64,000 nt of DNA from Anaerolineae bacterium (GTDB lineage Bacteria; Chloroflexota; Anaerolineae; B4-G1; DUEL01), in contig DAOTYX010000184.1 in NCBI GenBank assembly GCA_034434635.1, positions 3,880 to 67,879 of the forward strand. Direction: 5' to 3'. A program made the position numbers and the translations under genes. Positions 9,348-64,000 of this stretch are shown one piece after another. Under the pieces are notes generated by a model that ran no database searches, was not told the DNA's origin, and saw nothing but the letters and a program-made list of their open reading frames with translations. How positions within the stretch are numbered: position 1 is the stretch's first letter; each line of letters begins with the position of its first letter.

Positions 9348-10392
9348 GATGTGCCCGTCCGATAATGCCTATACCCTCCTGGATATGCTGACCGGCTATC
9401 AGGCTCCGGCGATCCTGATGGCGGCGCACCGTCTGGGCCTCTTCCGTGCCCTGGGTACAGGCCCGGCCACTCTCCAGGACCTGGCAGTGACCCTGTCGCT
9501 GCCCGAACGCTCCCTGGGCATTCTGCTGCGTGCTCTGGTGGCGCTGGGGTTGGTCCTTCAGGAAGACGGGCGGTATGCCAACGGCCCGCTGGTCGGGCAG
9601 ATGTTGGTCCCGGGTCGGCCTGGCTACCTGGGCCGCCTGGTAGACAAAGAGGCCTTCTTCTACAGTGCCTGGAGCCATCTGGCCGACTGCGTGCGCGAGG
9701 ACCACGCGGCGATTCCCCCTATCCGCGAGCGGGCCCGCCAGGACCCGCAGACGACGCACAACTTCCTGCTGGCTCTGGATGACATCGCCGCCTTGTTCGG
9801 CGAGATGTTCGTCCCCAGCGTGGAACTGGGCGATCGTCGGCGGCTGCTGGACGTGGGCGGCGGTGTGGGGAGTTACGCCGTCCGCCTGGCCCGCCGCTGG
9901 CCTGACCTGCGGGTGACCATCCTGGAGCTGCCAGAGGTGGTCCCGTGGGCGCAGCAGTTCGTCGCCGAGGCCGGCCTGGCCGACCGCATCGCCGTCGTGC
10001 CGGGGGATTTCCTGGTCGGTGGGTTCCCGTCGGGGCACGACGTTATCCTCTTCGCCAACATCTTCCACGACCAGCCGCCAGCGGTCAACCAGGGATTGCT
10101 GGTCGAAGCCTACCGCGCTCTGCCGCCAGGTGGACAGGTGCTGGTCTATGAGTTCCTGTTGGAGGAGAACCGCGTCGCTCCGGCAGCGAGCGCCCTCTTC
10201 GCGGTGATGATGCTGGTGGAGAACGAGGGCGGTAACGTCTATACCGCTCACGATATCGAGACCTGGCTGGCTGGGGCAGGGTTCGATGGCATCGCTACCA
10301 CTCCTCTGCCTGCTCCCAGCCCCATGGGCCTGATCGTTGGCCACAAGCCGCTGGCGCGGGCTGGAGGAGCCGTTCAGGCGTCTCAGCGGTAA
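9340..10392 (+). CDS. Class-I SAM-dependent O-methyltransferase (dimerisation domain + Methyltransf_2; ASMT/COMT-like)
   Basis: [16 protein letters not shown] motif and an N-terminal winged-helix dimerisation segment. ATG 9340 overlaps the upstream stop. Confidence 0.75.
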
Positions 10393-13115: not shown

Positions 13116-13123
13116 GGTGAGAA

Positions 13124-14605: not shown

Positions 14606-14609
14606 CAGG

Positions 14610-16864: not shown

Positions 16865-16897
16865 GAGGTGCGACGCATGACCCATGCGTCGCACCTC
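16865..16897 (+). promoter_or_regulatory. Intra-operonic 15-bp-stem hairpin between the binding-protein gene and the ATPase gene (GACGCAT...ATGCGTC core, related to the REP family)
   Basis: gaggtgcgacgcatg-acc-catgcgtcgcacctc. Typical position for differential-expression hairpins in ABC operons. Confidence 0.5.
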
Positions 16898-16916
16898 CTC
16901 TAACAGGGGGTGAGGC

Positions 16917-18488
16917 GTGGACGCGCTGCTGCGGATGGATTCCGTGACCAAGTCGTTTCCCGGCGTGCTGGCCAACGACCGGATTTCCTTCGAGGTTGCG
17001 GAAGGGGAGGTCCATGCCCTGCTGGGTGAGAATGGCGCAGGCAAGACCACGCTCATGCGCATCCTTTACGGGATGACCTCGCCCGATAGCGGCACAATCT
17101 ACTGGCGCGGCAAGCCGGTGCGCATTCCCTCCAGCCATGTGGCGATCGGGTTGGGGATCGGCATGATCCATCAGCACTTCATGCTCATCCCGGAGTTCAC
17201 CGTGGCCGAGAATGTGGCTCTGGGTTTGCGTGGCGATCGCTCCCCCCTTCTGGATCTGAGGGGCACAGCGCAGCGGCTGGAGGCGCTCTCCGCACAGTTT
17301 GGCCTGCGGGTGGATCCCTGGGCGCGGGTGAAGGACCTCTCGACGGGCGAGCAACAGCGCGCCGAGATCGTCAAAGCGCTCTACCGTGGGGCCCATCTGC
17401 TGGTGCTGGACGAGCCGACGGCCGTCTTGACCCCCGGCGAGGCGGATGAACTGTTCGCGGTCCTCGACAGCCTGCGCGCGCAAGGCCGCGCCGTGGTCTT
17501 CATCAGCCACAAACTGAGAGAGGTCATGCAGATCAGTGACCGGGTGACGGTGTTGCGTCGCGGGCGTGCGGTGGCCACGGTGCCCACCTGCGAGACCTCC
17601 CAGGAGCAACTGGCAAACATGATGGTGGGTCGCCCGGTGGTGCTGCAGATCGAGCGCTCCCCCGCGCGCCCAGGGAAGGAGGTCATCCGCCTGGACGAGG
17701 TCGCCATTCGCTCCCGCGAACACCACCGTAACGAGGTCGAGGACATATCGCTCACCGTGCGGGAGGGGGAGATCGTCGCCCTGACCGGCGTGGCCGGCAA
17801 TGGCCAGCGCCCGCTGATTGAGGCGCTCTTTGGCCTGCGGCGGGTCTCCGCAGGGCACATCTCCATTCTTGGCCGAGACGTCACTGCCTGCCGCCCGTGT
17901 GACCTGGTAGCGCTCAACGTCGGGCGCATCCCGGAGGACCGCCAGACGATGGGGCTGGCGATGAGCCTGTCGGTCTATGAGAACCTGGCTCTGGAGACCT
18001 ATGATCGCGAGCCGACCTGCCGTTGGGGGGTGCTGCGGCGCGGGGAGTTGCGCCGACAGGCCCAGTTGTTGAGGGAGGAGTACGACATCCGCATGCCGTC
18101 CATTGACCTGCCGGTGGGAAAACTCTCCGGCGGCAACCAGCAGAAGGTGATCCTGGCGCGGGCGTTGCGCCGTCGTCCGCGGGCGATCATCGCTGTGGAC
18201 CCCACGCGCGGGTTGGATGTGGGGGCGACGGAGTTTGTCTACCGTCAGCTCCTGGCGGCTCGTGACCAGGGAGCGGCGGTCCTGCTCATCTCGACGGATC
18301 TGGAGGAAGTGCTTTGTCTGAGCGACCGGATCGGAGTGATCTACAACGGGCAAATCATGGGGGTATTGCCGGCGACGGAGGCGGACGAGACCCGGCTGGG
18401 GCTGATGATGGCCGGGATGCCGTTGGCGAACATGCCCGACGTACTCCCACCAACCCACACCTTCAGCAACTGCTCGCCCCAGCCCTGA
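16917..18488 (+). CDS. ABC transporter ATP-binding protein with two fused nucleotide-binding domains
   Basis: Two Walker A motifs (GENGAGKTT / GVAGNGQR), LSGGQQQ and LSGGNQQ signatures. GTG start. Confidence 0.9.
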   Translation: MDALLRMDSVTKSFPGVLANDRISFEVAEGEVHALLGENGAGKTTLMRILYGMTSPDSGTIYWRGKPVRIPSSHVAIGLGIGMIHQHFMLIPEFTVAENVALGLRGDRSPLLDLRGTAQRLEALSAQFGLRVDPWARVKDLSTGEQQRAEIVKALYRGAHLLVLDEPTAVLTPGEADELFAVLDSLRAQGRAVVFISHKLREVMQISDRVTVLRRGRAVATVPTCETSQEQLANMMVGRPVVLQIERSPARPGKEVIRLDEVAIRSREHHRNEVEDISLTVREGEIVALTGVAGNGQRPLIEALFGLRRVSAGHISILGRDVTACRPCDLVALNVGRIPEDRQTMGLAMSLSVYENLALETYDREPTCRWGVLRRGELRRQAQLLREEYDIRMPSIDLPVGKLSGGNQQKVILARALRRRPRAIIAVDPTRGLDVGATEFVYRQLLAARDQGAAVLLISTDLEEVLCLSDRIGVIYNGQIMGVLPATEADETRLGLMMAGMPLANMPDVLPPTHTFSNCSPQP

Positions 18489-43671: not shown

Positions 43672-44688
43672 CTACGGGTTGGACTCGGTGGGGCCTTCCC
43701 CTGCCTCTGCCGGCACCATTGACATGGCAATCCTGAGCATCTCTTCCTCCGGCAGGTTCGAGAGCATCTCGATCCGGATGTTGCCAGTATACCAGATGAG
43801 CTGCTTGCCATCTGTGTAGGAGACGGTCTCGGCAGACCCAACCCCCGGTTCCAAAGCCACCACCTGGTCCGGCCCGGACGGCGAGGCGACAGGAGCCGAG
43901 GGAGTTGGCGGGATGGAGACGAAAGAGACCTGCCCTTCCAGACCGGTGATCAACACCGCTGGCTGGCCGTTGACCGTCACGTTTGCGCCAGCAGGCAAGG
44001 ATCTGTCGTCATCAGGGGACGACAACCGCTCATCAATGATGAGAATCTGATGGGTGGCGCTGTTCCAGTAGTTCAGGCTTGCCGCTTCCGGATTCAATCC
44101 TACGGCCATCGCCTCAAAACCATCCGGCAGATAGGCCGGACGCAGCGGCGTGAACTCCACCGAACCTGGGATAGATGCTACCGAACTTGGGACGGACACC
44201 TCTTCCCCCCCCGCAGGGCTCTCAAAGCGGAACCACCTGAGGAGCTCTCCCACCTGCGCCCGCACCGACGGAACGAAACCCGCCGTCCCGAGGACGATGA
44301 GCAGGGCTGCGATAGCGACCAGAGCAAGCCTTTTCTTCATCATCACACCTCCGAGGATTTGATTGATGTGGCCAACACCTTTCGACAGGCTCAGGGTACC
44401 GCCTGGCGCCAGACGGTGAAGCCATGTCGGGAGCCATGATGGTGAGGGGCGCGCTTCCCTCGCCAGCCTCGCCCGCAGGCGGCTCCAGACCTGTGGCGAA
44501 GGGACTGCCTGGGCAGCCCTGACTTGAAGGGACCGGCTGATGCGGCTCTGCAGCGCCGATAGAGCAGCCAGTTCCCGCTGACAGGCATCACACCCGGCCA
44601 GGTGAGCCTGGATCAATGCACGCTCTGAAGGGGTCACCTCATGATCCAGATAGGCAACCAGCAACTTGTTCACTTCCTGACATGTCAT
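43672..44688 (-). CDS. Anti-sigma factor (N-terminal zf-HC2, TM segment, extracytoplasmic domain)
   Basis: MTCQEVNKLLVAYLDHEV...HLAGCDACQ zinc-finger motif, hydrophobic segment, Pro/Ser-rich C-terminus. Confidence 0.85.
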   Translation of the reverse strand: MTCQEVNKLLVAYLDHEVTPSERALIQAHLAGCDACQRELAALSALQSRISRSLQVRAAQAVPSPQVWSRLRARLAREARPSPSWLPTWLHRLAPGGTLSLSKGVGHINQILGGVMMKKRLALVAIAALLIVLGTAGFVPSVRAQVGELLRWFRFESPAGGEEVSVPSSVASIPGSVEFTPLRPAYLPDGFEAMAVGLNPEAASLNYWNSATHQILIIDERLSSPDDDRSLPAGANVTVNGQPAVLITGLEGQVSFVSIPPTPSAPVASPSGPDQVVALEPGVGSAETVSYTDGKQLIWYTGNIRIEMLSNLPEEEMLRIAMSMVPAEAGEGPTESNP

Positions 44689-45254
44689 TTCGCCACCTCT
44701 CTTTGGGACACAGCGCGCAGGACTGGGGCATCTTCTGTCAGCGTTCCCAGTTCTTTGTGCAGGGTCTTGAGAGCCAGATCGAGCCGTGATTTGACCGTAC
44801 CCACAGGGATATTCAGGATTTGCGCGATGTCAGCGTATGAGAGTTCCAGGTAGTAGCGCAGGATCACGACCGCGCGCAGTTTGTCGCTCAACCGCCTCAG
44901 TGCCTGCTGGATCACCTCCTCATCCTCCAGTCGGTTCTGGAAGAAGGATGGTCGGTCTGGCGACATGGGCGGAACTTTGTCCAGCGAGATGAAGGGAAGA
45001 CGGCGCTTTCGCCGCCAACTGACGCAACGGTTCACCGTAATGCGATACAGCCATGTCGTGAAGGAGCCTTTTGACGGTTCAAAAGTGGAGAGAAACCTGT
45101 GTACCTGGAGGAAGACCTCCTGGAGCACATCCTCGGCTTCCTCAGCGCTGCCCAGCATCAGGTAGGCGGTCTTGTAGACCAGGTTTTTGTACTGATGGAA
45201 GAGAGTGGCGAAAGCCTCTTCATCCCCTGTCTGGCAGCGGCGTATCAGGTCCAC
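44685..45254 (-). CDS. ECF-subfamily RNA polymerase sigma-70 factor
   Basis: Sigma region 2 (LVYKTAYLMLGSAEEAEDVLQEVFLQV) and region 4 (LSYADIAQILNIPVGTVKSRL). Stop overlaps the anti-sigma start (ATGA). Confidence 0.9.
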   Translation of the reverse strand: MDLIRRCQTGDEEAFATLFHQYKNLVYKTAYLMLGSAEEAEDVLQEVFLQVHRFLSTFEPSKGSFTTWLYRITVNRCVSWRRKRRLPFISLDKVPPMSPDRPSFFQNRLEDEEVIQQALRRLSDKLRAVVILRYYLELSYADIAQILNIPVGTVKSRLDLALKTLHKELGTLTEDAPVLRAVSQREVAK

Positions 45255-45297
45255 GCTCTTGTCTCCTTGAGGTCGCGGTTCTGCTAAATTATACGCC

Positions 45298-45328
45298 GTT
45301 TTCGAATCGGAAGTTCGGAAACATACGC
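45298..45328 (-). promoter_or_regulatory. ECF-type autoregulatory promoter candidate (minus strand: CCGAACTT -17- CGTATAAT)
   Basis: GAAC...CGT spacing matches ECF -35/-10 architecture; 44-nt leader with AAGGAG RBS. Confidence 0.5.
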
Positions 45329-45490
45329 AGGTCGTAACCGCTCAGGCTGGCCGTTGAAACCGCGCCCGCTCTCTGCCTCCGAACGTTCGTAGGGCGGGAC
45401 CCTACGTGTCAAGTCAAATGATAATGTCACTGTGGCGTCCGTACTCTTTTCGTAGGACTTGCGCAGTTGGCGGATAAACCTTTGAAATTC

Positions 45491-45568
45491 GCCACGAATT
45501 TCACGAATGGACACGAATTTCGCCTCTCTCCATCCGTGAAATTCGCGCAATTCGTGGCAATAAAGATC
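45491..45568. promoter_or_regulatory. Compound repeat/operator-like element: three tandem CACGAAT(T/G) decamers plus nested inverted repeats (GCCACGAATT...AATTCGTGGC; CGAATTTCACG...CGTGAAATTCG)
   Basis: Read directly from 45488-45570; lies about 240 bp upstream of the sigma gene. Confidence 0.45.
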
Positions 45569-45654
45569 AACTGCGTAACTTCTATCGTTAAGGTTAGGGG
45601 CCTGGCGCGACTCAAAGTCGGCCCCACGTCGGAATGAACGACAGCCAGATGCTT

Positions 45655-45695
45655 GCCGTGTCAAGGGCACAGAGCGAAGCGTCCCTTGACACGGC
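45655..45695. other. 13-bp-arm inverted repeat (GCCGTGTCAAGGG...CCCTTGACACGGC)
   Basis: Direct observation; function unknown. Confidence 0.4.
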
Positions 45696-46035
45696 CAAGC
45701 ACCTGGCTAAAGTGAAAGAGGCGTTGGGCCGCCGGTGAGCAGGTCGGGCCTTGTTGTGACCGGCTACCGTTTGAGTTCGGTACGCTCGAAAGCCAATTGC
45801 AGTTCATCGTCTCCTTTCGGCCGATTGTGGGCCAAGGTTAAGCGAACGTCCTCGGTGTGGTCAGAGGAGATGCCAGGGAGGAGGAAGACCTGCTCGATGG
45901 CGTCGTAGATTTCTTGGCGCAGGCGGCGCGGGTTGGTGGCATCACGTTAGTGAATACGTGGCATGGCTGAACAGTCCGGATGTGCTATAATTGGAACCTG
46001 CGGAAGGGGAGGGTGAGAGGGGGGCTGAGGAGGCT

Positions 46036-52830: not shown

Positions 52831-55800
52831 ATGAGCAGCCCGCCCATCCTCACCCGGCTCTCCGTCCCACCCATCTCCCCCGATCTGCTTCACCGTGAGC
52901 GGCTGACGGACTTCCTCCATGAACAGATCGCCCGGCGCCTGATCGTCGTCGCCGCGCCGGCGGGTTACGGCAAGACGAGCCTGCTGGCCGATTTCGCCCG
53001 CGAGACCGATCTGGTCACCTGCTGGTACTCCCTCGCCCCTCTTGATAACGACCCCTCTGTCTTTCTGGAGCACCTGCTGACCAGCCTGGCGAATCACTTC
53101 CCTGGCTTCGGCAAGAAGACGCGCAGCGTGCTGACCGCGGCCTTGCCTCACGGTGACCCCCTGACCGTGGTGGGCGCGCTGGTCAACGAGATGGTCAGCA
53201 CGATCCCCGAATGGTTCGTCCTGGTGCTTGACGACTTTCACTACGTCGAGGATTCCCCCCCGGTGGTGTCACTGCTTTCTTCCTTGCTGGCCTATCAGCC
53301 AGAGAATTGTCACCTGATCATCTCCTCACGCACCGTTCCCCAAGGTCTGCCGCTGTTTTCTATGATGGCGAGGGGCACAGCGGCCGGCCTGGGAGTTGAC
53401 GCGTTACGCTTCACCGCTGATGAGGTGGAATCGCTGTTCTGGCGCTCTGGCTGTCGCATCTCGCCTCAGGAAGCGCAACGGCTGGTTGCCGAGACCGAGG
53501 GCTGGATTATGGCCATCCGTCTCACCGGCGGCCTTTGGCGCCAGGCCTGGAAGGGGTTGGAGCAGGGGAGCCTGGACGCCCAGCCGCTGTACGATTACCT
53601 GGCCGGGGAGGTGCTCAGTTGCCAGGAGGCGGAGGTACAACAGTTCCTCCTCTTGTCCTCCACGCTGGCGGAGATGACCGCCGAAACGTGTCAGCAGGCG
53701 TTGGGGATAAGAGATGCGGTGCATTGGTTGGGGGAGGTTGAACGGCGCAACCTGTTCGTGACGCGATCGGAAGCGGAGAAGAGGGGGCAGCGTTACCATG
53801 CCCTCTTCCGCGAGTTCCTGCAGGCGCGATTGAGAGAGGCTTCGCCGGAGGCGTTCTCCCTTCTTCATCGCCAGGCAGCGGCCTGGTTCGAGGCGCATGC
53901 CGCGCCGGAGCAGGCCGTCGAGCATTACCTGATGGCGGGGGCGGCCTTCGAGGCGGCGCAGGTGATGGATCGCGCCGCGCCGGAGTTGCTCAGGGTCGGC
54001 TACTTCCAGACGCTGGTCACCTGGGCGGAGCAGTTGCCGGAGGATGTGCTGTGTGCTGTACCCTCCCTCCTGCTCAACGCGGCCAAGGCTGCCTCCCGCA
54101 TTGGCTGCCCAGAACAGACGGAGCGTTGGCTGGAGATGGCGGAGGCTGGATCGCGGGCGCGGGGAGATACGGATGTGCTGGGCATGGTTCTCTCTGCCCG
54201 GGCGCTGGTGCGCCTGAACGAGGGGCACCACGCCGAGAGCCTGCGCCTCGTTGAAGAGGTGCTCTCCCTGGCCCCTCCCGACCAGGAGGGGATGGCTGAG
54301 GCGACCATTGAAAGCCGCCGGGTCCAGGCGGCTTGCCTGACGCACCTGGGTCGCTTCTCGGAGGCCCGCCAGCGCTTCCAGGAGGCTCTGGAGGCGAGCC
54401 AGGCGGCCGGGGCAGTGGACCGTGAGTTGCTGAGCCGTGAGGGGTTGGCCTGGTGCCTGCACTGCCAGGGACACCTGGAGGAGGCGGTCTCCCTGTATCG
54501 TACCCTGACCGCCACCTGCCGTAGCCTGGGGCGGCCAGCCCAGCTCTCTGGCGTACTGAATGACCTGGCCTACAGCCTCTACCTGCTCGGTCAGTACGAG
54601 GAAGCCCTCCAGGCTGTAGGTGAGGCGATGGAGGTGGCCCGCTCCATCGGCCATCGCCACCTGGAGGCTGTCGCCAGGGTGAGCCTGGGTGAGATGCTGC
54701 GTGACCTGGGAGACCCGCTCGGGGCGGTGGCCGAAATCGGACGGGGTCTGGAGGTCGCCGAACGTCTGGGCCTGACTTCCCTGCGCGTCTCTGCACAGGA
54801 TGCTCTGGCCCTGGCTCACCTCTGCAAGGGGGACCCCTGCATGGCAGTGGCGCTCTCCCGTGCGGCGGTGGAACTGGCCGAGAGACAGAGCGCGACATGG
54901 CTGATCGGGCATTGCTGTGCTACGTTGGGACTGGCGCAGGTGGAAGGCGGGGCCGTCGAAGAGGGGTTGGCCAGCCTGGAACAGGCCTGTGCCAGCCTGG
55001 AGCGGAGCGAGTCGGCGCAGGAACTGGCGCGTGCACGGCTCTTTCTCGCTGCGAGCCTGTGGCGAAGCGGGTGGCATGAGCGGGCGAAGGAGGTATTAGT
55101 ACAGAGCCTCCAATCCTGCCCGGACGCTGACCGTCGGCGGCGCCTGCTGGTCGAAGGGCAACCTGTGCTTTCCTTTCTGCAAGAGGCTCTCCCGCAGACG
55201 GCCAATGGGGGCGAATGGGCCACGCTGTTGGCGGATGGGGAGAAGGCCCGGGTACACGCGCGGGAGGCCCTTCCGCAGCCGAAGAATCTGCCATCTCCGC
55301 CACCGACCCTGCGCGCCTACGGCTTTGGCGTGAGCCGGGTGGAGCGGGACGGGGAGACGATCCCCGCTGCCCGGTGGCGTACTGCTACCGCCCGTCACCT
55401 TTTCTTCTACATCCTGAATCACCCGCTGCGCACGCGGGAGCAGATCGGCGCCGATATGTGGCCCGACCTGTCCCCCAGCCGGCTTTCAGGCACGTTCCAC
55501 AACACCCGATACCGCATGCAGCAGGCGCTGGGGGTGAATCCCATTGCCTGCCAGGACGGGTTGTATGCCATCCGCGAGGACCTGGAGGTCTGGTATGACG
55601 TGCACGAGTTCGAGCAGTTGCTGGATCGCGCCGCCGGCCGGTCGGACGATCGGGCCATCCGCGACCTGCGTCGGGCCATCGCCCTCTACCGCGGCGACTT
55701 CCTGGAGGATTGTTACGCTGACTGGTGCGTCACCCGCCGCGAGGCGCTGCGCGCGCGCTTCCTTGAGGCTCTGGAGCGTCTGGCGGACTATCTGCTGGAG

Positions 55801-56058
55801 CGTGGGGAGACGGGTGAGGCGATCGGCCTGCTATGCCGGGGGGTGGAGGCTGACCCCTTCCGTGAGAGCCTTCGCTGCAAGATGATGCGGGCCTATGCGC
55901 TCATCGGTCGGGTTGACGAGGCCGTCGCCCACTACCGGCGCTATGCCCGCCTCCTCCGGGAGGAACTGCAGGCCGAGCCGGAGCCGCAGACGCAGGCGCT
56001 GCTGACGGCCATTCGTCGGGGCCACGTGCCGATCGCCAGCCATGACCGCCTTTCATAA
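52831..56058 (+). CDS. STAND-class NTPase transcriptional regulator: MalT-like N-terminal ATPase, central TPR repeats, C-terminal OmpR-type wHTH + BTAD (SARP) module
   Basis: N-terminus aligns to the MalT P-loop region (VVAAPAGYGKTSLLADFA...CWYSL). C-terminal 260 aa have a DnrI/AfsR-like winged helix plus BTAD. 1075 aa. Confidence 0.8.
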   Translation: MSSPPILTRLSVPPISPDLLHRERLTDFLHEQIARRLIVVAAPAGYGKTSLLADFARETDLVTCWYSLAPLDNDPSVFLEHLLTSLANHFPGFGKKTRSVLTAALPHGDPLTVVGALVNEMVSTIPEWFVLVLDDFHYVEDSPPVVSLLSSLLAYQPENCHLIISSRTVPQGLPLFSMMARGTAAGLGVDALRFTADEVESLFWRSGCRISPQEAQRLVAETEGWIMAIRLTGGLWRQAWKGLEQGSLDAQPLYDYLAGEVLSCQEAEVQQFLLLSSTLAEMTAETCQQALGIRDAVHWLGEVERRNLFVTRSEAEKRGQRYHALFREFLQARLREASPEAFSLLHRQAAAWFEAHAAPEQAVEHYLMAGAAFEAAQVMDRAAPELLRVGYFQTLVTWAEQLPEDVLCAVPSLLLNAAKAASRIGCPEQTERWLEMAEAGSRARGDTDVLGMVLSARALVRLNEGHHAESLRLVEEVLSLAPPDQEGMAEATIESRRVQAACLTHLGRFSEARQRFQEALEASQAAGAVDRELLSREGLAWCLHCQGHLEEAVSLYRTLTATCRSLGRPAQLSGVLNDLAYSLYLLGQYEEALQAVGEAMEVARSIGHRHLEAVARVSLGEMLRDLGDPLGAVAEIGRGLEVAERLGLTSLRVSAQDALALAHLCKGDPCMAVALSRAAVELAERQSATWLIGHCCATLGLAQVEGGAVEEGLASLEQACASLERSESAQELARARLFLAASLWRSGWHERAKEVLVQSLQSCPDADRRRRLLVEGQPVLSFLQEALPQTANGGEWATLLADGEKARVHAREALPQPKNLPSPPPTLRAYGFGVSRVERDGETIPAARWRTATARHLFFYILNHPLRTREQIGADMWPDLSPSRLSGTFHNTRYRMQQALGVNPIACQDGLYAIREDLEVWYDVHEFEQLLDRAAGRSDDRAIRDLRRAIALYRGDFLEDCYADWCVTRREALRARFLEALERLADYLLERGETGEAIGLLCRGVEADPFRESLRCKMMRAYALIGRVDEAVAHYRRYARLLREELQAEPEPQTQALLTAIRRGHVPIASHDRLS

Positions 56059-57218: not shown

Positions 57219-58646
57219 TCACTCCACAGGGTTGAAGTAGTTGTAGACCGCCGTGGCGATGTCGCCGATCAGAGGGTCTGACGTTTCCGGCTCCGCGCCC
57301 AGGGGGTTGTAGAGAAAGACGACCAAAATGAAGTCACCGCCAGGACTGGAGAGGATGGCCCCGTCGGCGGCGACGGTGGCGGTACGGGCGGAGCGGCTGG
57401 CGACTCCAGCCGCTGCCGGCAGTCCGCCGCCGATAGGGCTGGCGGCCCGGTTGGTGGCCAGCGTCTCCATCATCTGCTGGCACTCGTCGGGCGTGAACGC
57501 GCCGGGGTAGGCCACCAGCAGCGCGCCACCGCCCCGGCTGCACTGGTAGACCATCTCCAGCAGCAGCCCGATGTCCTGCGCCGTCGTCTGCCCACGGAGG
57601 TCGGGCTGGGTGTCCACGTCGCTGCGGGAGTTCGCCGGGGTGACGATGGTGGGGGGCACGGCGGTGTCGCCGTAGGGCACGGCGAGGAAGGAGTTTTGCA
57701 GTCCCAGGTAGCGCAGTGCGCCGTTGAGGTTTTCCAGTCCCTGATAGACGTCACCACCGCCGCTCAGGTCACGCAGCAGGTCGTTGGCCGCGCCATCGTC
57801 GGTGCCGGTTACCGTCTGCGTCAGCAACGTGGTCTGTGCGGCGGTAGGGGGGCCATCCAGCGCGCGGTAGGCTTCGACCGCGACGGCCAGCCGCAGCACG
57901 TCCATCCCGCTGAAGGCCACATCGGCGTTGAGGGCCAGCTCTTCACCAGTTTCCAGGCCCTTCACGAACACAGCGGCGACGCCGGGGAAGTCGGCCAGGA
58001 GGCCGTTCAGCATCTCCCCCAGTTGCGCCATGCGCAGGGGTTCTGCTTCCTCCACCAGCACGGCCAGTTCCGCCCGCCGGTCCACCGCTGAGAGGAGCGC
58101 TGCTCCCACCCGCTGCGCGGAGACCTGGCGGTCCATCCGATAGCCCGGCAGGCCAGCGCGGAAGGTGAGGCGTTCCAGCAGGGGGACGGGCGGTTGTGCC
58201 GGCCGGTCGTACTGTTGCGCCACGCGGGCCAGAAAGCCGTCCAGCCGCTCCGCGGAGTAAGTGGCCGCGGGTGGGAGGAAGATCGGCGCCACAGGTCGGC
58301 GCAGCAGGTAGGCCATGAAGCCGTTCAGGCTGCGCCGGGCGGCAGCAGCGGCCTCCAGCGTCGCGCGCATCTCCGCAGGGTCGAAGCGGAACTCCACGAC
58401 GTCAGGGGAGAGGGAGAGCATCTCTCCCTGGTAGGAGACCTCGACCGGCTGGGCGAAGGCCGATTCCAGGCGCGCCGTTGCCTCTTCGGCGCTCATCCCG
58501 CCGACGTCCAGGCCGGCCACGGTCATGCCAGGGGGTAACAGCCGCAGGCTGGCGCGATAGCCCACGAACTGCCAGCCCAGCAGGGCCAGCAACACGCCGC
58601 CCAGCGCTACCAGTAGCCATGCCAGCACGCCCGATTCTCTGCGCAC
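57219..58646 (-). CDS. Membrane-anchored protein with peptidoglycan-binding-like N-domain and serine-hydrolase (beta-lactamase-class-A-like) C-domain
   Basis: N-terminal TM, PG_binding_4-like segment, C-terminal region with a GDF-type motif. Weak assignment. Confidence 0.35.
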   Translation of the reverse strand: MRRESGVLAWLLVALGGVLLALLGWQFVGYRASLRLLPPGMTVAGLDVGGMSAEEATARLESAFAQPVEVSYQGEMLSLSPDVVEFRFDPAEMRATLEAAAAARRSLNGFMAYLLRRPVAPIFLPPAATYSAERLDGFLARVAQQYDRPAQPPVPLLERLTFRAGLPGYRMDRQVSAQRVGAALLSAVDRRAELAVLVEEAEPLRMAQLGEMLNGLLADFPGVAAVFVKGLETGEELALNADVAFSGMDVLRLAVAVEAYRALDGPPTAAQTTLLTQTVTGTDDGAANDLLRDLSGGGDVYQGLENLNGALRYLGLQNSFLAVPYGDTAVPPTIVTPANSRSDVDTQPDLRGQTTAQDIGLLLEMVYQCSRGGGALLVAYPGAFTPDECQQMMETLATNRAASPIGGGLPAAAGVASRSARTATVAADGAILSSPGGDFILVVFLYNPLGAEPETSDPLIGDIATAVYNYFNPVE

Positions 58647-58774
58647 GGGATGATCTCCGGGCGGGGATTATAACACAGGCGGGGGAGAGCGCCAACCGCC
58701 AACGAGACAAAGCGAACGGGCTTGCGCGTTTCTGGCAGGTATGATATGATTTCCGTTGTAGTTGCTTACCCTTC

Positions 58775-58857
58775 ACCCTCCCGCAGGTTAGAAAGTGGCT
58801 GGCAACGGAGCGAAGGCAGCCTGTTGTGGCTTACCATGCCCAAACCTGCGCGAGGGT
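58775..58857. promoter_or_regulatory. Conserved hairpin motif copy A (ACCCTCCCGCAGGTT ... AACCTGCGCGAGGGT; 54-nt structured loop)
   Basis: Same arms as copies at 60510-60553 and 63309-63347; one mismatch. Confidence 0.55.
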
Positions 58858-59043
58858 AGGCAGTTACGTTCCATCAAGGTTGTTTCCGTTCTACAGCAGT
58901 GTCCGAAGGAGTAGCGGTCATGTTTTACTGTCGCCGCACCTGAGACGTAGCCCGTGGCGCCGGTTGGCGCCTTCAGGCCGGGCTGCACATGCCAGGGGGC
59001 GGCGAGATGACCGACCCCTGAGTCCGGGCACGGGTCCCCTCTG

Positions 59044-59094
59044 TTTGGGCGACACGCCGCCACTGGTATGTGCAGTGGCGGCTTTTTGTCGCCC
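59044..59094 (+). terminator. Terminator/attenuator-like structure in the yeeE-like leader: GCCGCCACTG-gtatgtg-CAGTGGCGGC followed by TTTTT, enclosed by GGGCGACA/TGTCGCCC
   Basis: Lies about 60 nt upstream of the start codon. The outer 8-bp arms could give an alternative longer helix. Confidence 0.45.
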
Positions 59095-59156
59095 AATGCG
59101 TGTCCCTGTTGAGGCGGAGGACACGTTTGGAGACCATATTTCCAGGAGGTGGACCT

Positions 59157-60281
59157 ATGTCCGAAAAACTGACCCGCTTCTTTGCCTCGCGCTGGGGCAT
59201 CATCGTGGCTGGGGCCGTCATCGGCATCCTGGCCCCGCTGCTCCAGAGGCTGGGCAACCCGCCCAACATGGGCATCTGCGTGGCCTGCTTCGAGCGGGAC
59301 ATCGCCGGCGCCCTGGGGCTGCACCGGGCGGACGTCGTCCAGTATCTCCGGCCGGAGATCATCGGCTTCGTGCTGGGCGCGACGGTCGCGGCGCTCTTGT
59401 TCCGCGAGTTCAAGGCCCGCGCCGGCTCCGCCCCCATCGTCCGCTTCGTGCTCGGCGTTTTCGCCATGATCGGCGCCCTGGCCTTCCTGGGCTGCCCCTG
59501 GCGGGCGCTGCTGCGCTTCTCGGCGGGCGACCTGAACGCCCTGGTCGGCCTGCTCGGTCTGACCTTCGGCATCTTCATCGGCGTGCTCTTCCTCAAAGCC
59601 GGCTACAGCCTGGGCCGCTCCTACAAGACCCACACTGCGGTTGGCTGGATCATGCCGGCCATCATGGTGGTGTTGCTTCTCCTGCTCGTCTTCCGCGTCA
59701 AGGTGAGCGACACCGGCGCCCTCTTCTTCAGCACGAGCGGTCCCGGCTCCATGCACGCGCCGCTGATCATCTCGTTGGTCGTCGGGCTGGTGATCGGCTT
59801 CCTGGCCCAGCGGACGCGCTTCTGCACCATGGGCTCGATCCGCGACGTGATCCTGATGGGCGACACGCACCTGATCAGTGGTGTGGGCGCGCTGTTCGTG
59901 TTCGCCGTCCTCACCAACTTGATCCTGGGGCAGTTCCGCACCCCTGCCTTCTTCGGCCAGCCGATCGCCCACAGCCAGCACCTGTGGAACTTCCTGGGAA
60001 TGACCCTGGCCGGGTTGGCCTTTGCCCTGGCCGGCGGTTGCCCGGGACGGCAGCTCTTCCTGGCTGGCGAGGGGGACGGCGATGCCGCCGTCTTCGTGCT
60101 GGGGATGATCACCGGCGCGGGGATTTCTCATAACTTCGCCCTGGCGGGCCGGCCCGACAGCGTGGTGGAAGGCGTGCAGACGGTCGGCGGCATCACCCCC
60201 TACGGGATGGCTGCGGTCGTCCTGGGGTTGGTGGTCTGCATCGTCATCGGCCTGACGATGCGCCAGAAGATGGAGGGATAA
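59157..60281 (+). CDS. YedE/YeeE-family membrane protein (sulfur/selenium-compound transporter family)
   Basis: 374 aa, about 9 TM, two internal repeats each with the conserved Cys (GICVACF...; FCTMGSIRD) typical of YeeE/YedE. ATG 59157 after CAGGAGGTGG. The track ORF 58826..60133 is in the wrong frame. Confidence 0.8.
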   Translation: MSEKLTRFFASRWGIIVAGAVIGILAPLLQRLGNPPNMGICVACFERDIAGALGLHRADVVQYLRPEIIGFVLGATVAALLFREFKARAGSAPIVRFVLGVFAMIGALAFLGCPWRALLRFSAGDLNALVGLLGLTFGIFIGVLFLKAGYSLGRSYKTHTAVGWIMPAIMVVLLLLLVFRVKVSDTGALFFSTSGPGSMHAPLIISLVVGLVIGFLAQRTRFCTMGSIRDVILMGDTHLISGVGALFVFAVLTNLILGQFRTPAFFGQPIAHSQHLWNFLGMTLAGLAFALAGGCPGRQLFLAGEGDGDAAVFVLGMITGAGISHNFALAGRPDSVVEGVQTVGGITPYGMAAVVLGLVVCIVIGLTMRQKMEG

Positions 60282-60285
60282 TGCC

Positions 60286-60495
60286 ATGGCTCAGACAGTA
60301 GATGCGCGCGGGCTTTCGTGCCCCCAACCGGTCATCCTGACACGCCAGGCCATTCAGACCGGGCAGTTCCCTATCGAGGTGCTGGTGGACACCGTGACCT
60401 CGCGGGAGAACGTCCGGCGTCTGGCGAAGAGCCTGGGCTACAAAGTGCAGGTGAAGGAGGAGGGGGGCGAGTTCAGGCTGACGCTGACGAAATGA
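60286..60495 (+). CDS. TusA/SirA/YedF-like sulfur(selenium)-carrier protein
   Basis: 69 aa; LDARGLSCPQPV (CPxP) motif. Confidence 0.85.
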   Translation: MAQTVDARGLSCPQPVILTRQAIQTGQFPIEVLVDTVTSRENVRRLAKSLGYKVQVKEEGGEFRLTLTK

Positions 60496-60509
60496 GCAAC
60501 TAGACCCTG

Positions 60510-60553
60510 TACCCTCCCGCAGGCTAGAGAGCACCCAAACCTGCGGGAGGGTA
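60510..60553. promoter_or_regulatory. Conserved hairpin motif copy B (TACCCTCCCGCAGG -16 nt- CCTGCGGGAGGGTA, perfect 14-bp arms)
   Basis: Intergenic between the TusA-like and desulfurase genes. Confidence 0.6.
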
Positions 60554-60581
60554 CAAAGGTCATTTTCTTCAGGAGAGTTGA

Positions 60582-61736
60582 ATGATCTACTTCGACAACG
60601 CAGCCACCTCCTGGCCCAAGCCGCCGGGAGTGGCTGAGGCGATGGTGCGTTTCCTGGAGGCCGTCGGGGCCAACCCCGGCCGTGCTGCCCACCGTCTGGC
60701 CGTGGAATCTGGGCGGATCCTCTACGACGCCCGCGAGGCAGTGGCGGACCTTTTCCACGCCCCCGACCCGCTGCGCGTGGTCTTCACCAAGAACGTGACC
60801 GAGGCGCTGAACCTGGCTCTGCGGGGCCTGCTGCGTCCAGGCGACCACGTGGTCACCAGTTCGATGGAGCACAACTCGGTGATGCGTCCCCTGCGCGCCT
60901 TGGAGCGCGACGGCGTCCAGGTGACGGTGGTGACCTGCTCGCCGCAGGGGGTGTTGGCTCCCGCTGACGTGGCAGCAGCCATCCGGCCCGCCACCCGTCT
61001 GGTTGTGCTCAACCATGCCTCTAACGTGGTGGGCACGCTGCTGCCGGTGGCTGAGGTGGGCGCGATCTGTCGCCAGCGCGGCGTGCTGCTGCTGGTGGAC
61101 GCTGCCCAGACCGCTGGCGCCTACCCTATTGACGTAGAGGCCGCACGAGTTGACCTGCTCGCCTTCACCGGCCACAAGTCTATGGGCGGCCCGATGGGCA
61201 CGGGAGGGTTGATCATAGGAGAGCGGGTGGAGGAGAGACAACTGGAGCCGCTGGTGCGCGGCGGCACGGGCAGCCGTTCGGAGTACGAAGTGCAGCCGGA
61301 TTTCCTGCCCGACATGTGCGAGAGCGGCACCCCGAACGTGGTAGGGTTGGCCGGATTGGAGGCAGGGGTACGCTGGGTTTTGGAACAGGGCGTGGAGACG
61401 ATCCGTGCCCATGAGGTGACGCTGGCCCGTGCGTTGATCGAGGGGTTGCTGGTCATTCCCGGTGTGACCGTCTATGGCACGCTGGATGCCGAACGGCAGA
61501 CGGCGACCGTCTCGTTCAACATCATCGGGATGGAGCCTTCGGAGGTGGGCCTGCGCCTGGACGACGAGCACGAGATCATGTGCCGGGTGGGGTTGCACTG
61601 CGCGCCGGCGGCTCACAGGACTATGGACACGTTCCCCGACGGCACGGTACGCTTCGGCCTGGGCGCTTTCAACACGATGGCCGAGGTGGAGGCCGCGCTG
61701 GCCGCCGTAGAGGCACTGGCCAGGGAGGTCCGATGA
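60582..61736 (+). CDS. Class-V aminotransferase: cysteine desulfurase / selenocysteine-lyase-like
   Basis: IYFDNAATS, HKSMGGPMGTGGL (PLP-Lys in HK), ...CESGTPN... Cys loop. Confidence 0.85.
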   Translation: MIYFDNAATSWPKPPGVAEAMVRFLEAVGANPGRAAHRLAVESGRILYDAREAVADLFHAPDPLRVVFTKNVTEALNLALRGLLRPGDHVVTSSMEHNSVMRPLRALERDGVQVTVVTCSPQGVLAPADVAAAIRPATRLVVLNHASNVVGTLLPVAEVGAICRQRGVLLLVDAAQTAGAYPIDVEAARVDLLAFTGHKSMGGPMGTGGLIIGERVEERQLEPLVRGGTGSRSEYEVQPDFLPDMCESGTPNVVGLAGLEAGVRWVLEQGVETIRAHEVTLARALIEGLLVIPGVTVYGTLDAERQTATVSFNIIGMEPSEVGLRLDDEHEIMCRVGLHCAPAAHRTMDTFPDGTVRFGLGAFNTMAEVEAALAAVEALAREVR

Positions 61737-61960
61737 CCACCGGCCAGTACACGGTCATTCTTCTACACTCCACCAGCCACGCCATCCACGCCGAGAGGCT
61801 GCTCAACAGGGCGGGCATCCCGTCGAAGATGATCCCCGTCCCGCGCCATATCAGTTCGAGTTGTGGTGTCTGCATCCGTGTTGGTCGGCCCGACCGGGAG
61901 GCGGCCCAGCGGGTGCTGCAGGTGGCGGGCGTGGAGATCGAGGGAACTCACGACATCTAG
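61733..61960 (+). CDS. DUF3343-family small protein (putative Se/S-carrier-like)
   Basis: 75 aa; ILLHSTSHAIHAERLL...PVPRHISSSCGVCIRV conserved pattern. ATG overlaps the upstream stop (ATGA). Confidence 0.7.
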   Translation: MTTGQYTVILLHSTSHAIHAERLLNRAGIPSKMIPVPRHISSSCGVCIRVGRPDREAAQRVLQVAGVEIEGTHDI

Positions 61961-62090
61961 AAGCCGTAACGGCCTGCGATGTCTGCGATCCACGCCGGCA
62001 GGGGAGAAGGGAACAGGTGGATGGGGGCTGGCGGCCGGCCGCCGGGCGGAGTGGGACGCCGGTCTGGCCAGCCTGATGGAGAAACGCCAG

Positions 62091-62164
62091 CGCCCCCGGT
62101 GGGACTCGAACCCACAACCACCGGATTAGAAGTCCGATGCGCTGTCCACTTGCGCCACGGGGGC
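62091..62164 (-). tRNA. tRNA-Arg(TCT): tRNA-Arg (anticodon TCT)
   Basis: 74 nt cloverleaf: acceptor GCCCCCG/CGGGGGC, D-stem GCGC, anticodon stem TCGGA/TCCGG with loop CTTCTAA, T-arm GTGGG-TTCGAGT-CCCAC, discriminator G. CCA is not encoded. Confidence 0.85.
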
Positions 62165-62174
62165 AGGTGACCCT

Positions 62175-62202
62175 ATTGTAACCCGCCCTGACCGGCTGTC
62201 AA
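62175..62202 (-). promoter_or_regulatory. Consensus sigma70 promoter for the tRNA (minus strand TTGACA-16-TACAAT, 10 nt before tRNA 5' end)
   Basis: Reverse complement of 62175-62202 read directly. Confidence 0.65.
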
Positions 62203-62221
62203 CCCCTCCAGGCCGGCCACT

Positions 62222-63289
62222 TCAAGGCAGATGGTCCAGTATCTGCTGCGTTGAGGGGCGGTCGTCCGCCGCCCGGCCCACATACGACCACGCGATCCGC
62301 CCGTCCCGGCCAATGACGAATACCGCCGGCGCGGCGTAGCCATCCTCCAGCAGATTGTAGACGCCGTAAGCCTCGGCAACCCGATGGTCGGCATCGGCCA
62401 GCATCGGGAAGGGGGCCTGCACAGCGCTCATGGCCCCCGCCACCGCCTCCCGCGAGGCGACCGCTACCGCCACCACCTCCGCCCCACGCGCCTGAAACTC
62501 CGGGTAGGCCTGGCGCAGCTCGACGAGCTGCGTGCGGTCAGGCCCTCAAGAGCACCTCTGGAAAAAGACCACCACCACCGGCCCCCGCGCCAGGCTCGTG
62601 GAGAGGGTGAAAGTGCCCGTATCCGCGCGCGCCAGAGCGAAGTCGGGCGCGGGAGGGGGGAGAGGGGTGGGTGTGGGAGGGGGTGAGGGCGGGGGCGACG
62701 GCACAACGGCCGCAGTGGGCAGACCGCTCGCGGCAAGCCCTTCTTGATTCACCTGGATCTCGGCCCGTTCCCGCGCCTGCGCCAGCCAGTCGTCCACCGC
62801 GACGCCCTGCGCCTGTAGCGCCTGCTGCGCCCGCTGCACCATCAGCAACCGGCCGATCGTCCGCTCCAACGCCGCCCGCTCCAACCCCGCGTCCCTCAGC
62901 GCGGCGACCAGTTCCTCGTCCCCGATCCCCAACGAGGCCTCGAGGTTGCCCAGGTAGGCCTCGACCTCTCCCGCCGTGGGGGTTGCCTGGGGCAACTCCT
63001 GGAGCAGCAGCACCCCGTTGATCAACCGCTCCAGGCTTTCTTCGGCCGTGGGCTCCGGCACGCCAGCCAGGCGGCTCATCACCCCATCTACACCCGCTGC
63101 CTCCAGCCAGAGGGCGCGGCTGATCGGTTGCCCGTTGACGATAGCCACCACCGTCTCCGTTGTCACAGGGATGGCTGTCGGCGGCTGGCTTTCGTGGCTC
63201 AACAGCAGGATAACCACCACCAGCAGCACGAGGGCCACCCCTCCCGCCGCCGCCATCGCCGCCCAGCGGCTGGTAGACCTTTGTTCCAT
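62222..63289 (-). CDS. Candidate selenoprotein: membrane-anchored SurA-N-like + Pro-rich linker + peroxiredoxin/redoxin-fold domain, with single in-frame TGA (62546-62548) in the active-site segment
   Basis: Track ORFs 62546..63289 and 62222..62476 are in the same frame and separated only by one TGA. The readthrough gives a collinear Bcp-like Prx domain. A stable hairpin follows 13 nt downstream. Confidence 0.5.
62514..62532 (-). promoter_or_regulatory. SECIS-like hairpin (mRNA CGCAGCUCG-U-CGAGCUGCG) starting 14 nt 3' of the in-frame UGA, apical G/U about 22-24 nt from UGA
   Basis: Read from the reverse complement; geometry fits bacterial SECIS spacing. Confidence 0.4.
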
Positions 63290-63308
63290 AACCCGCCTCC
63301 CAACTGCC

Positions 63309-63347
63309 TACCTCCCGCAGGTTTGGGCGCACCTGACCTGCGGGAGG
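63309..63347. promoter_or_regulatory. Conserved hairpin motif copy C (TACCTCCCGCAGGT -13 nt- ACCTGCGGGAGG) in the divergent region between the selenoprotein candidate and a thioredoxin-like gene
   Basis: Same arms as copies A and B. Confidence 0.55.
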
Positions 63348-63447
63348 AGTTGCCCGGCCTCCTCAAGTGGATGTAGACGATAGCACGACTTGGCCTGGAT
63401 GTCAACCGCCGGCCCGGCACCCTGCGCCTCTGCGGCAGACGGACACC

Positions 63448-63476: not shown

Positions 63477-63517
63477 CGTCCCGCCTGATACTCAGACCGA
63501 TGAGATGCATGAGGGAT

Positions 63518-64000
63518 ATGCGTAGAACCCTGTTCGCCATCCTTACCGCCACGCTGGTCTTGTTCGGCGTCACCGCCATGGTCCATGCTCAGGGGACCCC
63601 CCCACTGGATGGGCCAGTGGTCCGCATCCTCTATTTCTACTCTGTGGACTGCGTCCACTGCCAGGCAGTGCAGGAAGAGGTGTTGGCCCCCCTTCAGGAA
63701 CAGTACGGGTCGCGGTTGGACCTGCGGATGCTGGAGATCAGCGATCCGACCAACTACGAACTGTTGGTGCGTGTCGAGGAATACTTCGGCGTGGGCGCGG
63801 AGGAGCGCGGCCTGCCGACGCTCGTGCTCGACGGCCAGGTGCTCATCGGTGAGGAGGAAATCCGTCAGCAGTTGTCCTGCCTGCTGGAGAGCTGTCTGGC
63901 TGCGGGCGGGTCGGGCTGGCCGCCCATCCCCGGCCTGGAAGAGGGGCTGCCGTCTGGTTCGACTGGCCCCCTGGTGGGGCCGCCGGGCGGCCCGGGGCTG
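63518..64000 (+). CDS. Secreted thioredoxin-fold protein with CxxC (YFYSVDCVHCQ), 3'-partial at window end
   Basis: Signal-peptide-like N-terminus (MRRTLFAILTATLVLFGVTAMVHA) and CVHC motif. No stop before the window end; alternative in-frame ATGs at 63500 and 63509. Confidence 0.6.
   Translation, partial: MRRTLFAILTATLVLFGVTAMVHAQGTPPLDGPVVRILYFYSVDCVHCQAVQEEVLAPLQEQYGSRLDLRMLEISDPTNYELLVRVEEYFGVGAEERGLPTLVLDGQVLIGEEEIRQQLSCLLESCLAAGGSGWPPIPGLEEGLPSGSTGPLVGPPGGPGL

Follow-up and report, generated by a model that had tools for sequence, protein, structure and literature searches.

Loci that encode a YedE membrane protein, a SirA-like carrier, a selenocysteine (Sec) lyase and a DUF3343 protein side by side were described by Lin et al. 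in 2015 (PMC5322559), and YedE, its TusA-like partner and DUF3343 have been comparative-genomics candidates since that time. According to a 2024 study, a dedicated selenium transporter has been established in no organism (PMC11097638). The TsuA-TsuB thiosulfate uptake pair (YeeE-YeeD; structures 6LEO and 8J4C) likewise consists of a membrane protein of the YedE superfamily followed by a TusA-like CPxP protein, and its central cysteines are conserved. Here we examine a locus of the four families described by Lin et al. in a 64,000-nucleotide stretch of Anaerolineae DNA (contig DAOTYX010000184.1, positions 3,880 to 67,879; this whole stretch is the window, and its own numbering is used throughout). 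The cassette spans positions 59157 to 61960 and is preceded by a conserved RNA leader. In our view the locus is probably a leader-controlled selenium acquisition and trafficking operon of a Sec-decoding, high-GC bacterium of the Chloroflexota (Anaerolineae/Thermoflexia-like). The cassette comprises the following genes:

59157-60281, plus strand: yedE, 374 amino acids (aa), a membrane protein of the Se-type YedE family and putative selenium transporter.
60286-60495, plus strand: TusA/SirA-like single-domain carrier with a CPxP motif (Cys12), 69 aa.
60582-61736, plus strand: group II class-V pyridoxal 5'-phosphate (PLP) enzyme of the EF2568/SclA family (selenocysteine lyase / cysteine desulfurase), 384 aa.
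61733-61960, plus strand: DUF3343 / Se_S_carrier protein with a single conserved Cys44, 75 aa.

These four open reading frames (ORFs) form one tightly packed plus-strand array, as a reading made from the sequence alone (the sequence-only reading) had described, in DNA with a uniform GC content of ~66%. AGGAGG precedes the yedE ATG (59157) at a distance of 8 nucleotides (nt), the yedE stop codon is followed after 4 nt by the ATG of the TusA-like gene, and an 86-nt spacer separates the latter from the lyase gene. The TGA of the lyase gene overlaps the DUF3343 ATG as ATGA, and by this overlap, also recognized earlier, the DUF3343 gene is predicted to be translationally coupled to the lyase gene. 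The identical locus, including the in-frame TGA of the neighbouring redoxin gene discussed below, recurs in several samples, on 9 or more independent metagenome contigs, and is thus not an assembly artefact.

Pfam places the four products in Sulf_transp, TusA, Aminotran_5 and Se_S_carrier (formerly DUF3343), and public annotations use the names 'YedE family putative selenium metabolism protein' and 'cysteine desulfurase/selenocysteine lyase'. YedE scores 485 bits against the NCBIfam model TIGR04112, 'YedE family putative selenium transporter', for which the curated equivalog cutoff is 200 bits, and the match spans profile positions 2-336 of 337. It stays below both TsuA models (39.9 bits vs 400 for NF052577 and 21.5 vs 645 for NF041049) and reaches just 21 bits with the E. 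coli/Campylobacter YedE/FdhT model. The 69-aa protein matches PF01206 with 62.3 bits (gathering score 28.6), its CPxP motif being C12-P13-x-P15. The sequence-only reading had labelled this carrier YedF, which in the sense of TIGR03527 has two domains, a SirA-like N-terminus and a C-terminal domain with a CGxC motif. The window protein obtains 56.7 bits against a cutoff of 110 and covers profile positions 1-63 of 194, the N-terminal third alone, so that label does not hold: by its profile matches this is a single-domain SirA/TusA-like protein that lacks the second domain, and in this it departs from the two-domain YedF of the published neighbourhoods. The lyase scores 313 bits against PF00266 and 452.5 bits against TIGR01977, the EF2568 family (cutoff 377), and the DUF3343 product scores 83.6 bits against PF11823, Se_S_carrier (cutoff 25).

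All four proteins have strongly conserved residues. C41, C44, C113, C223 and C295 of YedE are at least 95% conserved in 83 relatives, and the same level is reached by C12, P13 and P15 of the TusA-like protein (77 relatives), by C44-G45 of the DUF3343 protein (26 relatives) and, in relatives of the lyase, by the PLP lysine K199 and the group II loop R335-x-G-x-H-C340-A. The sequence relation of YedE to the solved YeeE/TsuA structure 6LEO is remote (27 bits, E = 3e-5, ~100 residues covered) and the halves align in swapped order; in this remote alignment C223, C295 and C113 fall on the three central cysteines of the structure. The lyase belongs to TIGR01977 and shares the RxGxHCA loop and the PLP lysine with SclA (EF2568) and with the desulfurases of the SufS-SufE and CsdA-CsdE systems, and its nearest solved relatives are SufS-type desulfurases. 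The founder of its family, E. faecalis SclA (EF2568), is Sec-specific in vitro and is competitively inhibited by Cys (bioRxiv 10.1101/2020.02.07.939272). The window enzyme scores 394 bits against the exception-level SclA model NF040779, under its cutoff of 525, and has Asn at the position equivalent to SclA His100, so that a preference for Sec over Cys is putative. As with SufE and CsdE, a small single-cysteine partner is encoded directly 3' of the lyase, and transfer between the two is putative. DUF3343 shows no sequence relationship to SufE or CsdE, and a PDB sequence search with the window protein returned no solved structure.

To place the cassette in its genomic context we compared ~80 metagenome loci (YedE 65-87% identical), together with three from exact look-ups, in which partner genes were located by tblastn. 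The TusA-like gene lies downstream of yedE in 75 of the 76 related loci with enough downstream sequence, and the lyase and DUF3343 genes are present in 31 of 53 and 29 of 50 related loci with enough flank. When at least 5 kb of downstream sequence was available, half of the loci (16/32) also contained selD, identified by TIGR00476 (354 bits vs 125), within a few kb of the cassette. In each of the 24 selD copies seen, the U of the active-site G-U-x-K motif is encoded by an in-frame UGA, which indicates that the lineage decodes Sec. In locus L137 the gene order is tRNA-Sec, selB, leader, yedE, tusA, lyase, DUF3343. Every selD gene beside a YedE-TusA pair in these loci itself encodes a selenoprotein (…SAAG-U-AAKxGP…; L126 ~13990-14989, L128 ~16870-17891 and 22 further loci). 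Gene callers shorten this UGA-containing selD to 313-321 aa, and in the Anaerolineae-type gene two consecutive hairpins follow the UGA.

Together, the Se-type YedE score, the SclA-family lyase, the linkage to selD, selB and selC, the UGA/SECIS-like leader (where SECIS is a Sec insertion sequence) and the adjacent selenoprotein gene support the reading of the cassette as a selenium system and not a TsuAB thiosulfate importer. The sequence-only reading had linked the cassette to selenium, and that link stands. It had also kept TsuA-TsuB as an option, to be accepted on clear TsuAB orthology and a lack of selenium genes, and had pointed to the genome context of selD; what we find is failure of both TsuA models and partnership with selenium genes, not with cysteine-synthesis genes. 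The conserved partner of the cassette is selD, which points to a general selenium supply for selenophosphate synthesis. As a cassette the locus is not new. It has the same four families and the same co-localisation with SelD-dependent selenium use as the published neighbourhoods, is covered by curated models, and is a further member of that association. Its differences are modest: the single-domain TusA-like partner and a lineage with very tight linkage to selD (itself UGA-containing), selB and selC.

What was not described in the published YedE neighbourhoods (PMC5322559) is a cis-regulatory leader. The 510-nt gap 5' of yedE contains no called gene, and its last ~250 nt show 67-81% DNA conservation in more than 20 related loci. 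Within it we find the following elements:

58906-59087, plus strand: leader overall, ~180 nt, outside the cassette coordinates.
58906-58943, plus strand: upstream ORF (uORF), with the Shine-Dalgarno (SD) sequence AAGGAG at 58906-58911, ATG at 58920, the peptide MFYCRRT and an in-frame TGA at 58941-58943.
58929-58942, plus strand: region 1, the 3' part of the uORF, which pairs with region 2.
58956-58971, plus strand: SECIS-like hairpin GGCGCC-GGTT-GGCGCC, beginning 12 nt past the TGA, with its tetraloop at +19 to +22.
58982-59004, plus strand: region 2, GCTGCACATGCCAGGGGGCGGCG, the switching strand, which pairs with region 1 or with the terminator 5' arm and loop.
59019-59021, plus strand: second in-frame TGA, closing a 25-codon read-through frame, within the conserved motif GACCGCACCCTGAG.
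59056-59087, plus strand: intrinsic terminator GCCGCCACTG-GTATGTG-CAGTGGCGGC followed by TTTTT, ~70 nt ahead of the yedE ATG.

This plan is shared by the related loci. It begins with an SD sequence, a start codon, 5-9 codons (consensus ..Y-H-R-R-T) and an invariant TGA, continues with 12 variable nt, a 6-bp hairpin with a tetraloop (GGUU, AGUU, GGUC, GGGU or AGGG) and a purine-rich region 2, and ends with the motif GACCGCACCCUGAG, which holds UGA in two reading frames, and, 50-150 nt ahead of the yedE ATG, a strong intrinsic terminator. In all, 32-34 related loci share the leader, and 31-32 have a TGA-terminated uORF with the hairpin behind it. TGA and hairpin are 12 nt apart in 30/31 loci, across spacers of varying sequence. 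No terminator-like site other than that at 59056-59087 occurs within 58600-62300, and most related loci have a homologous terminator. In L149 (9771-9943) and L144 (68-234) the uORF has two in-frame TGAs with one codon between them (…CGC TGA ATT TGA… and …TAC TGA ATC TGA…), the extra TGA standing in place of the usual CGN/CAA codon.

Several observations bear on whether the uORF is translated. An SD sequence and start codon in frame with the TGA occur in 25/31 loci, and in the other two frames in 3/31 and 1/31. T28, G29 and A30 of the leader TGA are among just 10 invariant columns of alignment A4, and the TGA is kept in AT-rich relatives whose region 1 and flanks are otherwise different. Covariation was assessed on a 32-sequence alignment guided by a covariance model, with 500 shuffles. 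In the leader helices 89.8% of cells are paired and 20/34 pairs have changed on both sides, a result matched by 0/500 shuffles; shifted registers of the same helices are 35-58% paired. The SECIS-like hairpin is 98.6% paired with compensatory changes in 6/7 pairs, and the terminator helix, over 32 loci, is 96.8% paired with compensatory changes in 8/12 pairs. The helix between regions 1 and 2, which takes in the U and G of the UGA, is 76-89% paired. The competing antiterminator, formed by region 2 with the terminator 5' arm and loop, is 85-87% paired with 8 compensatory pairs. One of these, pair 79-210, involves a terminator-loop column and occurs as CG in 12 and UA in 6 sequences; loop columns are free of the constraint imposed by the terminator stem, and their covariation with region 2 is therefore independent evidence for the antiterminator. 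Column 83 alternates between A and G and in this way stays compatible with U28 of the UGA as well as with column 206.

The leader is specific to this context. The covariance model gave 34 matches with E < 1e-4 in 917 kb, all directly 5' of yedE, and 679 kb of control DNA from other Chloroflexota yielded no match below E = 0.1. Rfam 15 yielded no gathering-score match to the leader (in the window it matched tRNA only), and its E <= 10 matches over 58640-59200 were at chance level. A search of the available literature found no report of a Sec-dependent leader or attenuator, or of a selenium riboswitch. Judged by Rfam 15 and the searchable literature, the leader is apparently undescribed.

The layout is that of a leader-peptide attenuator: a leader ORF overlies region 1, the helices 1:2, 2:3 and 3:4 are alternatives, and a terminator stands before the first gene. 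The trp, his and pheA attenuators likewise combine a short leader ORF, mutually exclusive helices and a terminator ahead of the first gene; in contrast to them, the sensing codon here would be a single UGA with a SECIS-like hairpin and not a run of sense codons, and the signal would be the availability of Sec-tRNA(Sec)/SelB in competition with release factor 2 (RF2). The hairpin has the geometry of bacterial SECIS elements, an in-frame UGA with a G/U-containing apical loop within about 16-37 nt downstream. The E. coli fdhF SECIS is built in the same way, and its GGUC occupies the +19 to +22 position held by GGUU in the leader. The assignment of the hairpin as a SelB-binding, Sec-inserting SECIS is nevertheless putative. 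Like the SECIS-like hairpin of selAB, the element is placed for regulating selenium genes, whereas it lies in a 7-codon uORF coupled to a terminator and antiterminator and the selAB hairpin is untranslated and represses translation initiation. The leader joins two known kinds of element, leader-peptide attenuation and either SECIS-dependent recoding or a SelB-binding regulator of the selAB type, in an unreported way. We also considered the read-through product as a small selenoprotein and rejected it, as covariation in the hairpin alters its residues and indels shift the frame in some loci; the read-through frame is, judging from these changes, a leader.

For the mechanism of this leader and for the sign of the regulation we infer the following, with confidence somewhat above even that it is a Sec-sensing transcription attenuator. 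The short uORF, closed by a UGA with a hairpin of SECIS geometry, would act as a trp-type attenuator in which the Sec codon is the sensing codon and the competition of SelB·Sec-tRNA(Sec) with RF2 at a functional SECIS picks antiterminator or terminator. A ribosome dwelling at the UGA would mask region 1, leaving region 2 to pair with the terminator 5' arm and loop and allowing transcription into yedE. If Sec is inserted, the ribosome would run over region 2 to the second stop codon and the terminator would form. When the window sequence is folded under constraints, helix P1 and the terminator form in the free RNA; masking a ribosome footprint at the first UGA (UGA1) replaces the terminator by the long antiterminator (terminator probability 0.78 to 0.00), and a ribosome over region 2 restores the terminator. 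Among the related loci, 9 have a lower terminator probability with the ribosome at UGA1 than at the second stop and 2 show the reverse. Footprint-mask folding thus leans towards a model in which stalling gives antitermination and is not decisive. An operon that is on when Sec-tRNA(Sec)/SelB is limiting is slightly favoured over the opposite sign. This agrees with the induction of yedE on selenium starvation in M. maripaludis, where its transcript rises 5.3 log2-fold (PMC11097638).

Three points count against the attenuator. The mean terminator probability across loci is 0.50 for free RNA, 0.39 with the ribosome at UGA1 and 0.63 with the ribosome at the second stop, from an equilibrium model that is noisy. 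Helix P1 is mostly conserved and shows little covariation. Release by RF2 could be too fast for the proposed stalling.

The strongest competitor, to which we assign a real but minor chance, is a leader that works as a riboswitch for a ligand or protein, or that binds SelB as the E. coli selAB 5' untranslated region does, the short ORF being incidental and its translation no part of the mechanism. The 5' domain is closed and multi-helical, with P0/P1 enclosing the hairpin, and the UG of the UGA is paired in P1b, so its conservation could be structural; moreover, SelB is known to repress selAB through an untranslated SECIS-like hairpin (summarised in PMC13449736). This explanation does not account for the concentration of SD and start codons in the UGA frame, for a UGA that stays invariant in AT-rich relatives with a different region 1, or for a UGA-hairpin spacing fixed at 12 nt across variable spacers. 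In addition, the UGAs in two frames of the region 1' motif end translation before the terminator.

It is unlikely that the operon handles excess selenium by export, detoxification or breakdown of free Sec, with a leader that is on when Sec-tRNA(Sec)/SelB is abundant. In such a scheme slow SelB decoding would hold the ribosome on region 1, and fast RF2 release under starvation would lead to the terminator. The leader architecture fits either sign of regulation, YedE was proposed as a possible exporter by Lin et al. (PMC5322559), and in L128 and L139 folding with the ribosome at UGA1 disfavours antitermination. Against this stand the linkage to selD, selB and selC, which suggests supply over disposal, the starvation-induced yedE transcript of M. 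maripaludis, and the 9 loci against 2 in the footprint folds.

Two further sets of observations concern regulation of the cassette. Between the terminator and the yedE SD (59088-59156) lies another conserved segment, GUUGCCCAA…CGUGUCC-loop-GGACACG-UUUGGAGAUCAUAU, at homologous positions in related loci; GGGCGAC 5' of the terminator could pair with GUUGCCC 3' of the U-run, and a conserved CCCUCC box 5' of the terminator could pair with a GGAG-containing segment. The conserved segment and these pairings suggest an additional layer of control, possibly translational. The more distant loci L167-L213 (YedE 65-68% identical) lack the leader described above, and many of them share an AT-rich segment such as TTCAATTTGACATAT…TATA, a possible promoter or operator, ~60-120 nt 5' of yedE. 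The cassette is evidently not regulated in the same way in all lineages.

Beyond the DUF3343 gene the window holds a gene with an in-frame UGA, and the sequence-only reading had proposed that the cassette feeds this selenoprotein or a specific cofactor. The features that bear on this are:

62090-62164, minus strand: tRNA-Arg(TCT) gene, between the DUF3343 and redoxin genes, which the sequence-only reading had passed over.
63289-62222, minus strand: membrane-anchored thioredoxin-fold selenoprotein (redoxin), outside the operon, with its TGA at 62548-62546.
62531-62515, minus strand: hairpin GCAGCTC-GTC-GAGCTGC after the redoxin TGA, with a compensatory change in orthologs.
60509-60555, plus strand: palindromic hairpin GTACCCTCCCGCAGG...CCTGCGGGAGGGTAC in the tusA-lyase spacer (z = -6.6), a copy of a generic Chloroflexota repeat.

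The presence of a UGA-containing redoxin gene close to the cassette was borne out. It ends 262 bp past the DUF3343 gene on the opposite strand, so that the two are convergent, and its TGA lies in the context FFQRCS-U-GPDR. The ~35 closest homologs in the database (47-70% identity) are all fragments of ~100 aa that begin just after the TGA, the signature of a conserved in-frame stop codon, and in more distant full-length homologs the first Cys of a CxxC motif aligns with U. Orthologs keep the TGA (FFQRCG-U-GPDR in L215, FFRTTG-U-GPCR in L216), and their hairpin, GCAACUC/GAGUUGC against GCAGCUC/GAGCUGC in the window, shows a compensatory change of G-C to A-U. The retained TGA and the compensatory change argue for a genuine selenoprotein family, and by these sequence features the organism is predicted to decode Sec. 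The protein combines a membrane anchor at its N-terminus with a SurA_N-like domain, a Pro-rich linker and a thioredoxin fold. In this redoxin family of Anaerolineae/Thermoflexia the active site is U-G-P-D in the window and in L215 (ortholog at 9248-10300) and U-G-P-C in L216 (8993-10297); a Cys two residues ahead of U (C-S-U) is found in the window and L215 only. In every record seen, gene calling has broken the gene in two at the TGA.

A dedicated supply for this redoxin or for one cofactor is very improbable. It would account for the short distance between cassette and redoxin gene, for three palindrome copies, the only ones in the 64 kb, beside yedE, the lyase and the redoxin, and for a homolog of a redoxin-adjacent 528-aa protein within the L128 cassette. 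The redoxin gene, however, is convergent and lies behind the tRNA gene. None of the 82 related cassette loci contains it, the two orthologs (L215, L216) stand in unrelated neighbourhoods, and the palindrome is a generic repeat beside unrelated genes. The redoxin is not part of the cassette, and a dedicated route is not supported by these comparisons.

The 528-aa protein is encoded divergently from the redoxin, at 63509-64000 in the window, where it runs off the end; L001 holds it complete (12928-14514). Besides two thioredoxin-like CxxC domains it contains a C-terminal membrane domain with the motifs GLNPCAF and ELACTGQ, and it shows a weak match to the ArsG family and no Pfam family above threshold. 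A homolog (43% identical; L128 11718-13358) lies within the cassette of L128 and L143, between tusA and DUF3343, where it replaces the lyase. This thiol-redox membrane protein may be a second link to the selenium cassette.

The least probable explanation is a sulfur system, in which a TsuA/TsuB-like importer of thiosulfate or persulfide works with a cysteine desulfurase and acceptor for Fe-S clusters, thio-cofactors or tRNA thiolation: YedE does share TsuA's Pfam superfamily and aligns three cysteines with the StYeeE centre, TusA-like proteins and group II desulfurases are classic sulfur carriers, one source labels the small protein 'tRNA 2-thiouridine synthesizing protein A' and DUF3343 is also known from organisms without SelD (PMC5322559), yet the model scores favour the Se-type family by a wide span (485 bits vs 200, as against 40 and 21 vs 400 and 645), linkage to a Sec-containing selD recurs, selC-selB linkage is seen once, and the operon leader is built on a UGA/SECIS-like unit.

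For the selenium operon itself, we infer the substrates and transfer steps from the families involved. By analogy with the distant thiosulfate channel YeeE/TsuA, YedE would move selenium species across the membrane via its conserved cysteines, and the TusA-like protein would then take selenium on its CPxP cysteine. The SclA-type lyase would mobilise selenium from free selenocysteine or cysteine-like substrates as a perselenide on Cys340, and the DUF3343 protein may accept it on its single conserved cysteine, as SufE and CsdE do when serving group II desulfurases. The import and salvage branches would converge on SelD and from there on all selenium-dependent products, the redoxin being one among them.

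Some observations speak against this scheme. Neither tblastn nor ARAGORN found selD, selA, selB or tRNA-Sec in the 64-kb window plus 10 kb of flank; the Sec machinery genes are presumably present in this genome, as judged from its selenoprotein gene. Selenium transport is putative for every member of this YedE family. Deletion of yedE in M. maripaludis gave no clear phenotype (PMC11097638), and E. coli YedE, of a different subfamily, is reported to be a transporter of zero-valent sulfur (PMC10812762). The occurrence of DUF3343 in organisms without SelD, and the sub-cutoff SclA score and His100 replacement of the lyase, also belong here.

The palindrome mentioned above has two further copies, at 58766-58860 and 63308-63350, and all three fall within 4.6 kb. 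Their orientation follows local transcription, and they share the core CCTCCCGCAGG..loop..CCCAAACCTGCGGGAGG. We considered this palindrome, CCTCCCGCAGG..CCTGCGGGAGG, as a shared operator or RNA element of a selenium regulon and rejected it: it occurs at more than 119 GTDB loci, mostly in Anaerolineae, none of which encodes a cassette protein, its neighbours span 168 Pfam families among 139 proteins, and it is absent from 853 kb of related YedE loci. Its hosts are mostly Anaerolineae/Thermoflexales, with a few Latescibacterota, Planctomycetota and Zixibacteria, and its stems are often extended to 15-23 bp. It is intergenic, commoner at gene 3' ends (111 vs 70) and stands beside unrelated genes; it looks like a REP-like repeat family. 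Elsewhere in the window, a 1075-aa MalT/BTAD-type regulator (AAA, WHD_MalT, TPR, BTAD) is encoded on the plus strand at 52831-56058, 3 kb 5' of the cassette, and occupies the same position on all contigs of this organism, and the GC content dips to 0.58 at 44001-46000, compared with ~0.66 elsewhere.

By itself the cassette is of low to moderate interest; with its leader, interest is moderately high. If the leader senses Sec-tRNA(Sec)/SelB through its UGA, the operon would be tied to selenium status by mechanism and not by co-occurrence. The leader would then be the first cis-acting element to sense cellular selenium status and control transcription accordingly, would supply the first regulatory evidence for YedE, TusA-like, SclA-like and DUF3343 proteins in selenium homeostasis, and would extend leader-peptide attenuation to a recoded stop codon. 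Such a leader would also offer a compact, portable reporter for intracellular selenium availability. It could be probed by simple point mutations in the UGA, the tetraloop and the uORF start, and the leader puts both the function of YedE-type systems and bacterial selenium sensing within reach of direct tests.

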